This document shows positions 21,439 through 55,092 of a stretch of DNA of 64,000 nt, one piece after another. Position 1 is the stretch's first letter. Each line of letters opens with the position of its first letter. Source of the DNA: an uncultured Prevotellaceae bacterium (GTDB lineage Bacteria; Bacteroidota; Bacteroidia; Bacteroidales; Bacteroidaceae); assembly GCA_902792635.1 (NCBI GenBank), contig CADBAG010000018.1, positions 3,379 through 67,378 of the forward strand, in the 5' to 3' direction. The notes beneath the pieces are model-generated. The model was not told the DNA's origin. It saw only the letters and a program-made list of their open reading frames with translations, and did no database searches. The position numbers and the translations under genes are program-made.

Positions 21439-21563
21439 GCTTCTCAAGGACAGAACACAATAAATAAGACAACTCTTTATCAGGTACCTTTGAGGTGCCA
21501 ATATCGCCAAGGCCGGACTTCGCAAGAATGTCACGGCCTTTTTTAGTTCGTCCGTATTTCGAG

Positions 21564-21608
21564 CTGATGGGTTCACACAACCTCGAAGAGGTTGTGTACG
21601 CCCATCAG
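21564..21608. repeat. Solo hairpin with the CCTC-GAA-GAGG core of the REP/MITE family
   Basis: ctgatggg..cacaacctc-gaa-gaggttgtg..cccatcag. Confidence 0.75.
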
Positions 21609-21703
21609 TACAAATTCGAAAGATCCTTTTTTAGTTTACATAACGCCGTGACTGTGGAAAAAACGGGAAAATGATTGGAATATACGCATTCTCTTCAAAA
21701 AAG

Positions 21704-23755: not shown

Positions 23756-24032
23756 GGGCGTCCGCACCTCGAAGAGGTGCCACATGGTTAGCTCCACGTG
23801 AGGCGTAGCCGAAACGTGGGGTTACAGTTGGAGCGAGTGACCTGAATACCGGCCTCGAAGAGGGCGAACATGGTTTAAACACCAATCACCCATCACCTAT
23901 AACCAGCATCCCGCCCATGTACGCCCTCTTCGAGGCCGGATTGCAACAAGACTACACCGGACCTAAACCCCATGCTGCGTCGCTTCGCTCCTTGCATGGG
24001 GCTAACCATGTGCAACCTCTTCGAGGTTGACT
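23756..24032. mobile_element. REP/MITE-like multi-hairpin element, copy 1 (no ORF)
   Basis: Four CCTC-GAA-GAGG hairpins, two direct and two inverted, interleaved with two longer hairpins. Aligns along its length with the reverse complement of 36461-36731. Confidence 0.8.
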
Positions 24033-24065
24033 ATAGTATCAACCTCAAAAGATGAGAACATAAAT

Positions 24066-24153
24066 AAGCTATTTATCGATTAAAAACAGCTTGATTATCG
24101 ATTAAAAACAAGTTGATTATTGATTAGAAACAAGTTATTTATTGCTGAGAAAT
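24066..24153. repeat. Four degenerate 22-bp tandem units
   Basis: The ttatcgatt-like core starts at 24073, 24095, 24117 and 24139. Confidence 0.85.
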
Positions 24154-36295: not shown

Positions 36296-36319
36296 TAAGT
36301 TCTACGATATTTGGTTCAC

Positions 36320-36348
36320 CGTAGGGGCGGCCCTTGTGGCCGTCCTAC
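36320..36348. repeat. GTAG-family REP hairpin
   Basis: cgtaggggcggcccttgtggccgtcctac is a near-exact reverse complement of 49851-49881. Confidence 0.85.
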
Positions 36349-36405: not shown

Positions 36406-36460
36406 GATGCCGTTAAACATTATAAAAAAGTGATTCTTCCGGTTTTCGGATTGCTACTAC

Positions 36461-36731
36461 AGTCAACCTCGAAGAGGTTGTACATGAGTAGCCCCAGGTA
36501 AGGAGCGCAGCGACGCAACCTGGGGCTTCGGCCCAGTGTATTTTCGTTGCAATCCGGCCTCGAAGAGGGCGAACATGGACGAGATGCTGGTTATAGTTGG
36601 TGGGTTTTTAAACCATGTTCGCCCTCTTCGAGGCCGGTATTCAGGTTATCTGCACCCATCCACCACCCCACGTTTCGGCTGTGCCTCACGTGGGGCTAAC
36701 CATGTAGCACCTCTCCGAGGTGCGGGCGCTC
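36461..36731. mobile_element. REP/MITE-like multi-hairpin element, copy 2 (inverted relative to copy 1)
   Basis: Same order of hairpins and shared linkers, e.g. cctgaataccggcctcgaagagggcgaacatggtttaaa. Confidence 0.8.
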
Positions 36732-37612: not shown

Positions 37613-37643
37613 GATTTGTTGTTAGATTAAGATTAGTAATGCT

Positions 37644-37755
37644 ATTGGCCGACACGTGACAACCAATTGGCCGACACGTGACAACCAATTGGCCGACACG
37701 TGACAACCAATTGGCCGACACGTGACAACCGACTGGCTGTCACGTGTCAGCCAAT
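37644..37755. repeat. Four near-perfect 22-bp tandem units plus one inverted unit
   Basis: attggccgacacgtgacaacca starts at 37644, 37666, 37688 and 37710. An inverted copy with 2 mismatches lies at 37735-37755. Confidence 0.95.
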
Positions 37756-37760
37756 GGCGA

Positions 37761-40985: not shown

Positions 40986-41055
40986 TTTTTCATTAATTCA
41001 TTATTTCAATCTTTCATTTTTTCAATCTGTTCCGGTTTTCGGATTGATAGTGTGG

Positions 41056-41282
41056 TACAGCCTCGGAGAGGCTGACTCTGCATAACCCCAGGCAAGGAGC
41101 GCAGCGACGTAGCCTGGGGTATGTTAGGTTAATGGATCGTATCATACGAAACATTGCGCGCCAAGGCGCAGTCAGCCTCTCCGAGGCTGGCATTCAGGTA
41201 TTCCACATGCGACCTACTCCCCAGGCTGCGTCGCTACGCTCCTTGCCTGGGGTTAGAAAGAGTGTGCCTCTCCGAGGCACTT
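41056..41282. mobile_element. REP/MITE-like multi-hairpin element, shorter variant 3
   Basis: CCTC-GGA-GAGG hairpins at 41058, 41173 and 41264. The ccccagg..aaggagcgcagcgacg..cctgggg hairpin occurs direct at 41086 and inverted at 41219. Confidence 0.8.
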
Positions 41283-41312
41283 ATCAACCCGAAAAGAGAA
41301 CCTTTCATTCTC

Positions 41313-49850: not shown

Positions 49851-49881
49851 CGTAGGGGCGGCCACAAGGGCCGCCCCTACG
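49851..49881. repeat. GTAG-family REP hairpin between convergent waaA and patB-like genes
   Basis: cgtaggggcggcc-acaag-ggccgcccctacg forms a perfect 13-bp stem. Confidence 0.9.
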
Positions 49882-49887
49882 GTATTG

Positions 49888-54412: not shown

Positions 54413-54487
54413 TGGTAGTGGATAGGGGAATCGAACCCCTATGCCAAGATTGAGAATCTTGTATCCTAACCATTAGATGAATCCACC
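54413..54487 (-). tRNA. tRNA-Glu(CTC), CCA encoded
   Basis: Cloverleaf with anticodon arm CAAGA-TT-CTC-AA-TCTTG, T-loop GTTCGATT and 3' ACCA. Confidence 0.93.
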
Positions 54488-54564
54488 ATCTGGTTTCCAT
54501 TGAGAGAATAAAAAAGCCTTGTCGGCATGTTGCATGTTAACAAGGCTCAACTCCTTGAAGGAAG

Positions 54565-54636
54565 TAGTCGGTAAGAGAATCGAACTCTTATGCCAAGATT
54601 GAGAATCTTGTATCCTAACCATTAGATGAACCGACC
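54565..54636 (-). tRNA. tRNA-Glu(CTC), second copy, CCA not encoded
   Basis: Identical D and anticodon arms. Acceptor and T stems differ by paired changes. Confidence 0.93.
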
Positions 54637-54657
54637 ATCTGAAGGCTATTTCCTTTG

Positions 54658-54746
54658 CGGAAGCTGGGGGATTCGAACCCCCGGTACGCGTAAATGCGCA
54701 CGGCAGTTTAGCAAACTGCTGGTTTCAGCCACTCACCCAAACTTCC
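54658..54746 (-). tRNA. tRNA-Ser(GCT)
   Basis: GCAGT-TT-GCT-AA-ACTGC anticodon arm, long variable arm and GTTCGAAT. A minus-strand TACCTTTG box lies at 54797-54804. Confidence 0.93.
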
Positions 54747-54899: not shown

Positions 54900-55009
54900 T
54901 CGCGATACCGATTGAATCGCGCTGCGATTACGGTGAAATCGTACTGCGATTACGGTGAAATCGAACTGCGATTACGATTAAATCGCAAGCCGATAACAGT
55001 GCAATCGCA
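54900..55009. repeat. Five degenerate 22-bp tandem units
   Basis: ctgcgattacggtgaaatcg(t/a)a at 54922 and 54944, with degenerate units at 54900, 54966 and 54988. Confidence 0.88.
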
Positions 55010-55092
55010 GACACGCTTTGACGTATGCAGACAAAAAAGAAAAGAAAACTTTGAGAATCTAAAATATTCTCCTTATCTTTGCACTGATTATT

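Follow-up and report, generated by a model that had tools for sequence, protein, structure and literature searches.

Hairpin-array repeats of a Prevotellaceae genome and their probable origin from an element encoding an IS200-like Y1 transposase

What are the multi-hairpin repeats found in this Prevotellaceae DNA, what keeps their stems paired, and which enzyme moves them? A sequence-only reading of the 64-kb window, by which we mean the whole stretch of DNA analysed, had described three copies and a solo hairpin, in which short and long hairpins alternate in mirror image about a variable centre. All four elements lie where they were reported, the mirrored alternation holds in them, and our module scan found no fifth. 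The short hairpin consists of CCTC-G(A/G)A-GAGG with a variable 3-bp stem extension, and the long hairpin of CCCC-N4…N4-GGGG. The long stems quoted in that reading (CATGC/GCATG, CAGGT/ACCTG and CAGGC/GCCTG) and its short-hairpin flanks (GCA/TGC, CAA/TTG, CAG/CTG and GTG/CAC) are likewise correct. Its coordinates gave the positions properly but not the extents: the elements are larger and include a terminal repeat of ~24 nt (GGTTCTTCCGGTTTTCGGRTTGAT), and the revised bounds of the three large copies are ~23757-24059, 36432-36730 and 41028-41302.

Copy 1 (23757-24059, plus strand) is an inverted doublet of subfamily A whose left end carries no terminal repeat. Its left arm runs through a short hairpin S1 (23764-23780), a long hairpin L1 (23793-23821) and a second short hairpin S2 (23849-23866) into the variable centre, and reads GCACCTC-GAA-GAGGTGC, then the long (C)CCACGT…ACGTGGGG, then CCGGCCTC-GAA-GAGGGCG. 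The right arm is the mirror image of the left one with TTC loops, and comprises S2' (23922-23939), the long hairpin L2 (23968-24001; CCCCATGC…GCATGGGG), S1' (24013-24029) and the terminal repeat (24030-24059). Folded as single-stranded DNA, copy 1 reaches -73 kcal/mol (z -7.9). Copy 2 (36432-36730, minus strand) also belongs to subfamily A, lies in the inverted orientation, carries the terminal repeat GATTCTTCCGGTTTTCGGATTG at its left end and is 84% identical to copy 1 (84-91% over the arms). The two copies show a compensatory difference, with CAGGT/ACCTG in the copy 2 equivalent of L2 where copy 1 has CATGC/GCATG. Throughout the three large copies the long stem changes from ATGC/GCAT (copy 1) to AGGT/ACCT (copy 2) and AGGC/GCCT (copy 3) while the loops remain unchanged. 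Copy 3 (41028-41302, no strand assigned) is of subfamily B, the type that brackets the transposase gene tnpA described below, and has terminal repeats at both ends. In the assembly it is without 63 nt, including one short hairpin, that are carried by 10 out of 10 conspecific metagenome contigs. Copy 2 occupies the same site in such contigs, and an empty-site check found copies 2 and 3 occupied in all the conspecific contigs read, with no presence/absence polymorphism; the 63-nt internal indel was the sole variation at these two copies.

The fourth element, taken at first for a solo hairpin, does contain that hairpin (CAACCTC-GAA-GAGGTTG, 21577-21595) but is actually a 78-nt mini-element (21549-21626) in which two degenerate terminal repeats surround one short hairpin. 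It is flanked by a 10-nt direct repeat, TTTTTTAGTT, at 21539-21548 and 21627-21636, and as single-stranded DNA it folds into a single hairpin of -22.3 kcal/mol (z -7.4). Its insertion point lies directly after a terminator-like hairpin and T-run. When 21-42 kb of the window was searched against Rfam at a permissive E-value, only sub-threshold matches to microRNA and VA models were obtained, which arise because the elements are long palindromes; Rfam thus offers no known RNA family as their identity.

The elements of the window belong to a much larger family. The host genome measures 3.16 Mb in 69 contigs with 50.6% G+C. The sequence-only reading had proposed a genome-wide count, and our BLAST search with the four window sequences returned 1857 high-scoring pairs that merged into 342 loci; together these take up 59.9 kb, 1.9% of the genome. 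The pattern CCTC-NNN-GAGG occurs at 1047 sites, compared with 22-179 for six control palindromes, and 905 of these sites have the loop GAA, GGA, TTC or TCC. Long hairpins with a perfect 8-bp stem (CCCCNNNN/NNNNGGGG) number 433 genome-wide, a figure taken from a perfect-stem census, loop-anchored regular expressions being prone to register slips. Module chaining identified the building block as an S-L-S triplet (short, long, short hairpin) of ~120 nt, arranged as ~100 inverted doublets (S+L+S+ S-L-S-), ~55 single triplets and ~87 solo short hairpins, together with truncated or nested forms. The doublets are palindromic, span ~270-330 bp and are found in both orientations, and in most copies a (G/T)TAG tetranucleotide lies upstream of the long hairpin. 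The median nearest-neighbour identity of 88%, with more than 95% in 35 copies, indicates an old family with some recent members. A DNA search of 30 relatives with copy 1 gave weak matches in one genome only, so the repeat sequence family is species-specific, and our literature search found no description of such repeats in Prevotella-type genomes.

Next, we considered what keeps the stems paired. The proposal that stems covary while loops are kept held across the genome: among 920 copies oriented by their GNA loop, positions 2 and 3 of the short-hairpin extension are Watson-Crick paired in 97% and 96%, compared with 28% and 50% expected from column composition, although these counts are inflated by shared descent and correspond to ~6-8 independent events per hairpin type, not hundreds. 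Position 2 uses all four pair types, and pairing ends abruptly at position 4. Eight perfectly complementary triplet variants occur in at least six copies each (GCA/TGC 165, CAG/CTG 120, CAA/TTG 118, GTG/CAC 86, CTG/CAG 50, TGC/GCA 22, CGA/TCG 8 and TAA/TTA 6). Perfect stems of the long hairpin come in at least seven variants (AGGT 168 copies, ACGT 94, AGGC 52, AGAC 47, AGTC 34, ATGC 20 and ATGT 4), interlinked by single compensatory steps, and mismatched intermediates are rare. This overwhelming covariation supports the earlier suggestion that the hairpin structure is under selection. Perfect stems could alternatively be a by-product of templated palindrome correction acting on a few founder subfamilies, which would yield structure without selection. 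Quasi-palindrome correction is an established mutational process, and the copies do fall into few subfamilies, so that most of the covarying cells are inherited; correction should, however, erase the G·G mismatch that is conserved in 257 inner short hairpins, it does not account for stems that change while loops stay conserved, and the GAA-triloop design recurs with unrelated stems at homologous genes of other families and phyla (see below). We regard this explanation as very improbable.

Selection on the structure remains our reading, and its target appears to be the individual hairpin. The minimum-energy fold of copy 1 favours the long palindrome. The two arms of one element can differ, with GCA against CAA in the short hairpins and ACGT (14-nt loop) against AGGT (18-nt loop) in the long ones, yet every hairpin is locally perfect, which indicates that the conserved feature is the local hairpins and not the long palindrome. 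Hairpins of the IS200/IS605 and REP families form on single-stranded DNA. The short hairpins of the present family have a GNA triloop closed by a C-G pair, the core of the DNA "mini-hairpin" d(GCGNAGC) of extreme stability (PMC13037366), and this fits a hairpin formed on transiently single-stranded DNA.

The same hairpins might instead be kept mainly for a host or RNA role, as a 3'-end mRNA stabiliser, a terminator or a protein-binding site, as is thought for REPs, with the transposase link described below being historical. Genomic placement gives this idea some footing. Using approximate gene calls (crude open reading frames, n = 2139, 86% coding), we found nearly all elements to be intergenic, with 12 of the 342 loci inside an open reading frame, and they occupy 19% of convergent gaps compared with 12% of divergent and 9% of tandem ones. 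Gene 3' ends are nearer (median distance to a stop codon 94 nt, mode 20-40 nt) than 5' ends (median distance to a start codon 165 nt), and copies 2 and 3 are kept in all the conspecific contigs sampled. The statement that each copy begins within 30 bp of a stop codon is true of the three large copies of the window (~1, 15 and 10 nt) but is a mere tendency genome-wide, where ~30% of the family copies lie within 40 nt of one. Against an RNA role, G·T-type (22) and A·C-type (14) stem mispairs are about equal and both rare, which gives no sign of selection on one transcribed strand, since an RNA made from one strand should tolerate G·U alone. Moreover, the doublets are palindromes found in either orientation, selection against promoter insertions and the choice of AT-rich targets would produce the placement bias equally well, and the conserved loop is a DNA mini-hairpin motif. 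A mainly host or RNA role therefore seems improbable to us, although the elements may have side effects for the host, for example through RNA hairpins at 3' ends.

We then turned to the Y1 transposases to which the sequence-only reading had tied such hairpin arrays. A single gene in the whole genome, on contig C25, exceeds the cut-off for PF01797 (2e-25), and encodes a protein of 147 aa. It scores 79.3 bits against the NCBIfam IS200 model NF033573 (cut-off 55) and 37.2 bits against the RAYT model NF047646, below the cut-off of 80. Its nearest solved structures are the Sulfolobus, ISHp608 and ISDra2 TnpA proteins (IS200-type; PDB 2F4F/2A6M relatives), with which the catalytic Tyr aligns, and there are no RAYT structures among its PDB matches. 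The motifs PDHIHV and YIIRQKEHH contain the residues H53-I-H55, Y114, Q118 and H121-H122, and the consensus of 87 homologues reads GMPDHIH … W..gy.aF … YI.nQ..HH with a conserved tail. Quentin et al. 2018 (PMC6006769) characterised subclass 1.2 by DH[IV]H and a Y motif of the Y---Q--HH or YI.NQKEHH type, a length of ~148 aa, a conserved C-terminal domain, low gene copy number and a Bacteroidetes host, and in motifs, length, tail, copy number and host the present protein is alike. By these signatures, it is an IS200-like TnpA_Y1 of subclass 1.2 and not a canonical RAYT. Its closest named relative is from an Alloprevotella.

The decisive observation named in advance was a copy of the repeat that encloses a Y1 gene, and contig C25 provides it. 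There, the intact tnpA is bracketed by half-elements, forming a doublet with tnpA at its centre. Upstream of the ATG lie CAGCCTC-GAA-GAGGCTG, CCCCAGGC…GCCTGGGG and GCCTC-GAA-GAGGC; downstream of the stop codon lie CAGCCTC-TCC-GAGGCTG, CCCCAGAC…GTCTGGGG and GCCTC-TTC-GAGGC, followed by the terminal repeat. The terminal repeat is present on that one side only, the other side being rearranged by a 38-nt tandem triplication. Contig C48 carries the same element with an internally deleted tnpA, of which ~45 N-terminal and ~12 C-terminal codons are left. In the window, the centre of copy 3 keeps ~20 nt matching those that, in the tnpA element, lie immediately inward of the left arm (ctgcacg.tagtgcgctatgt) and another ~20 nt matching those that directly follow the tnpA stop codon (gcgcgcc..ggc.cagt). 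The elements therefore form a graded series, from the gene-bearing element through the deleted gene, the ~300-bp doublet and the single triplet down to the 78-nt one-hairpin mini-element, and this is the expected trail of MITE formation. The tnpA gene showed no synteny with relatives within 1.5 kb. These three cases (C25, C48 and copy 3) support the view that the repeats are REP/MITE-like units, non-autonomous and linked to a Y1 transposase of the HUH class. Specifically, the window elements are probably non-autonomous foldback MITEs of a ~0.75-1 kb element encoding the 147-aa subclass 1.2 Y1 transposase, and we are more confident that the Y1 protein is the cognate partner and source of the family.

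The link between gene and hairpins extends to homologues in other genomes. We assembled 80 loci from species-representative genomes and 10 from the same genus (30-52% identity), of which 77 were scorable, and counted hairpins with a perfect 5-bp stem and a GNA or TNC triloop in 450 nt on each side of the gene, using regions 550-1000 nt away as controls. Such hairpins occur at 2.97 per 900 nt of flank compared with 0.35 in the controls, a ~8-fold difference, with two or more at 49 of 77 loci but at 4 of 65 controls. Inverted repeats that pair one flank with the other and score 40 bits or more were detected at 21 of 77 loci and at none of 65 controls. GAA and TTC are by far the commonest triloops, with GNA loops enriched upstream of the gene and TNC loops downstream. 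The stems, on the other hand, are wholly different between species: CCTC/GAGG in this genome, CCCC/GGGG in the congener G070 and in Alloprevotella sp. Lung230, GACGGT/ACCGTC in another congener, ATCCC/GGGAT and ACCCT/AGGGT in Sinomicrobium, and TGTCC-TAC-GGACA in a Paludibacter MAG. Three of these other genomes contain their own dispersed hairpin repeats: G070 (complete, 4.4 Mb) has at least 40 dispersed copies of a 242-bp doublet at 96-99% identity, Lung230 has at least 49 dispersed matches of its flanking repeats, and Sinomicrobium has ~10 dispersed copies. Homologous Y1 genes elsewhere thus sit between GAA-triloop hairpins of their own, and these hairpins also occur dispersed through the respective genomes. 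Within the genus, tnpA is patchy (33 of 150 sampled genomes, best identity 50%). Subclass 1.2 had been described without associated REP-like repeats (PMC6006769); here, and at the 49 loci just mentioned, the gene is bracketed by dispersed GNA-triloop hairpins.

The ends of the elements raise a separate question. In most complete copies the conserved segment GGTTCTTCCGGTTTTCGGRTTGAT lies outside the outermost short hairpin, inverted at the two ends, and in 86 of 120 occurrences it is 8-15 nt from that hairpin. Just outside the termini GGTTC…GAACC, 27 of 42 two-ended elements carry an 8-nt direct repeat that is exact in 15 and otherwise has one mismatch, whereas 200 trials with shuffled flank partners averaged 4.2 such elements and never exceeded 9. 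In its dominant register the duplication abuts the terminus exactly; its sequence is AT-rich and differs from element to element. In G070, whose terminal repeats read A(T)TCAAGTTTCGCAAGTA…TACTTGCGAAACTTCAGT, exact 5-nt duplications flank 12 of 20 copies, where 1.04 would be expected and none of 500 shuffles exceeded 5. On insertion, 8 bp of AT-rich target become duplicated in the present genome and 5 bp in G070. Copies 1 and 2, like the rest of subfamily A, carry the terminal repeat at a single end and show no clear duplication, none being detectable at the ends that lack the repeat.

Terminal inverted repeats with a target duplication of fixed length are the signature of DDE transposases. To our knowledge no Y1/HUH transposon shows this signature, IS200/IS605, IS91 and Helitrons making no such duplication, and our literature search found no description of a Y1 element with target duplications. 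The sequence-only reading drew on the IS200/RAYT paradigm; the enzyme, however, is of subclass 1.2, and the terminal inverted repeats and target duplications do not agree with that paradigm. Because these ends are a DDE hallmark, we searched for a DDE transposase with eight Pfam transposase families in the 69-contig assembly, and with the terminal repeats in the complete G070 genome. The corresponding explanation is that the elements are DDE-type MITEs moved in trans by a transposase that may be lost, unassembled or borne on a phage or plasmid, with the Y1 gene and hairpins as cargo or lodger; the hairpins would then serve the Y1 protein otherwise, for example in local nicking, resolution or copy control. 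Like the MITEs derived from ISL3, IS5 and IS1595, the present elements have terminal inverted repeats (here 24 nt long and beginning with GG), AT-rich duplications of fixed length (8 bp, and 5 bp in G070), lengths of 80-330 bp and a location between genes, and the terminal repeats are kept by elements of very different hairpin content. The genome also contains an ISL3-type gene, albeit a truncated one.

The search yielded no DDE element with GGTTCTTCCGGTTTTCGG ends in this genome, where no pair of terminal repeats encloses a transposase and orphan terminal-repeat matches are noise or truncated elements. With the Pfam models for IS256, IS1595, IS4/5, IS66 and IS6 this genome gave nothing, or matches below the cut-off, and there is no transposase among its multi-copy proteins. 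ISL3 was rejected as the mover: of its sole gene only a fragment is left, cut short at the end of a contig, and a full-length relative of 96% identity in another species has unrelated 39-nt inverted repeats. The single rve gene, IS3-like and also at a contig end, was rejected as well. In G070, 100 terminal-repeat matches resolved into ~50 MITEs and one coding element of 971 bp, whose sole gene is a subclass 1.2 tnpA. A 3.4-kb interval between two terminal-repeat matches in that genome encodes a primase/helicase-like protein and no transposase, and we judged it a chance adjacency.

These results weigh against a DDE mover. We found no coding DDE element that shares these ends, either in this genome or in the complete G070 genome, whose family at 96-99% identity must have been active recently, and in G070 the tnpA element alone is both coding and bounded by terminal repeats. 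In the genus, the inverted repeats of ISL3 relatives bear no relation to these ends, and the genomes with an ISL3 match do not include G070. At least one short hairpin is kept in 54 of the 55 elements bounded by terminal repeats, and the canonical set of four short and two long hairpins in 28 of them. Finally, in contrast with known DDE-type MITEs, the search brought up no autonomous DDE partner sharing the ends, the sole coding member encodes a Y1 HUH protein, and the interior consists of covarying hairpins in a set order and is no random deletion remnant. We consider a DDE mover unlikely. Since no DDE element was found, the Y1 protein is the only candidate that the data offer, although its known relatives leave no duplication, and we see the chances that it performs the duplication-forming insertion itself as evenly balanced. 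Besides the DDE-like ends, three observations sit uneasily with Y1 as the putative mover: the copies here are old (median nearest-neighbour identity 88%), the tnpA-bearing copy has the terminal repeat on one side, and subfamily A has one terminal repeat and no clear duplication.

Insertion by the Y1 protein could proceed as follows. TnpA would recognise hairpins extruded on single-stranded DNA, and, the arms being inverted, the GNA loops would lie on the top strand of the left arm and on the bottom strand of the right one. If propagation were limited to copies with intact hairpins, compensatory stem changes would result. The inverted ends would have each strand processed at one end, perhaps by a dimeric Y1 enzyme, and joining to staggered nicks in a duplex target might then produce the target duplication. 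In a broader and more tentative proposal, which we place somewhat short of even chances, subclass 1.2 enzymes would drive a separate type of HUH transposon, with inverted GNA-hairpin arrays and terminal repeats, staggered nicks and duplications of 5-8 bp, and would also be the missing partners of hairpin-array MITEs across Bacteroidota and neighbouring phyla. If that were true, the geometry, with staggered nicks in a double-stranded AT-rich target, would be one undescribed for any HUH enzyme.

The family shares features with several known systems. Most known REP/RAYT systems come from Proteobacteria, and the way in which REPs spread is not settled. With REP, BIME and REPIN sequences and their RAYT (TnpA_REP) proteins (Nunvar 2010, PMC2817692; Bertels & Rainey 2011, PMC3116915; Ton-Hoang 2012, PMC3333891) the family shares high-copy extragenic GC-rich hairpins arranged singly or in inverted doublets, one Y1 HUH gene per genome that lies between repeats of its own, and species-specific repeats enriched at gene 3' ends, here with (G/T)TAG before the long hairpin. 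It differs in that the transposase is of class 1 (IS200-like, Y…Q..HH) and not a class 2 RAYT (Y..NP-type motif), the unit has three hairpins of two kinds instead of one, and the gene is not syntenic between species and has a second, decayed copy. A further difference lies in the 24-nt terminal inverted repeats and 8-bp target duplications; we know of no report of either for REP/REPIN-RAYT systems. The IS200/IS605 elements, including their MITE/PATE derivatives, have in common with the family the transposase fold and motifs (PF01797, NF033573), subterminal hairpins and short derivatives formed by internal deletion. Their ends, however, are not inverted repeats of each other, are both processed on one strand and leave no duplication, whereas the present elements have inverted ends, three hairpins per arm, terminal inverted repeats and target duplications.

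A subclass surveyed as repeat-less thus does have a cognate repeat family, which takes up to ~2% of a gut-type Bacteroidales genome, and the graded series from gene-bearing element to mini-element shows how such families arise. The insertion footprints do not match the accepted single-strand Y1 mechanism and point either to an undescribed mode of HUH integration or to an unknown enzyme; G070, with ~50 copies at 96-99% identity, would be a tractable system for deciding. The repeats also have a practical side: 60 of the 342 loci lie at contig ends, which indicates that they break the short-read assemblies of this group, and they could serve as strain markers.

In the congener with a complete genome (G070), a 281-bp MITE and a 971-bp element carrying the Y1 transposase gene tnpA were found side by side (L092:743-2178). 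Both are embedded in near-identical flanking sequence, an arrangement indicating that a segment was duplicated in tandem and that only one of its two copies carries tnpA. On contig C25, which holds the intact tnpA of the genome under study, a 38-nt unit is repeated four times in tandem just before the element's left end (L001:1198-1345), each repeat with a short hairpin inside that is either intact or gutted. The 14-nt string AAAACCGCAGAAATGA is found where the upstream RNase R-like gene stops and again at the start codon of tnpA.

We compared copy 3, a doublet of the hairpin-array family, with the same site in conspecific metagenome contigs (L102-L111). A segment of 63 nt, including one GCCTC-TCC-GAGGC hairpin, is absent from the centre of the copy in this assembly (window 41140) and present in 10 of the 10 contigs, and its absence is explained either by an internal deletion specific to this strain or by collapse of the assembly. 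Four truncated elements (C24:14263, C22:18314, C24:47036 and C36:147) were broken inside the short hairpin, with the breakpoint within its first half (…CCT|ATCAT…). Close to these elements there is often a copy of a third small repeat, GAGCTGTACGGTTGAA; the genome holds 106 matches to it when up to 2 mismatches are allowed. The breaks may reflect a preferred breakpoint, or the hairpin may be targeted by another element.

In a second REP-like family, unrelated to the hairpin arrays, each member is one GC-rich hairpin, CCGTAGGGGCGGCC-cttgt-GGCCGCCCTA, tagged with GTAG on its 5' side; it is found at window positions 36318-36345 and 49856-49883 and has 84 matches across the genome (up to 3 mismatches allowed). 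On contig C48, one such hairpin lies immediately upstream of the element with the decayed tnpA.

Finally, the window contains several tandem arrays. The 22-nt unit ATTGGCCGACACGTGACAACCA, with the palindrome CACGTG within it and 62 unit matches over the whole genome, is repeated 5-6 times between two genes (37622-37758), in what looks like an iteron or transcription-factor binding array. A different 22-nt unit, GCGATTACGGTGAAATCG…, forms 4-5 diverged copies (54902-55011) adjoining a minus-strand tRNA cluster of two tRNA-Glu and one tRNA-Ser (54413-54746). Immediately 3' of copy 1, another main-family doublet, lie three to four AT-rich tandem units of ~21 nt, ttatcgattaaaaacagcttga (24050-24130).
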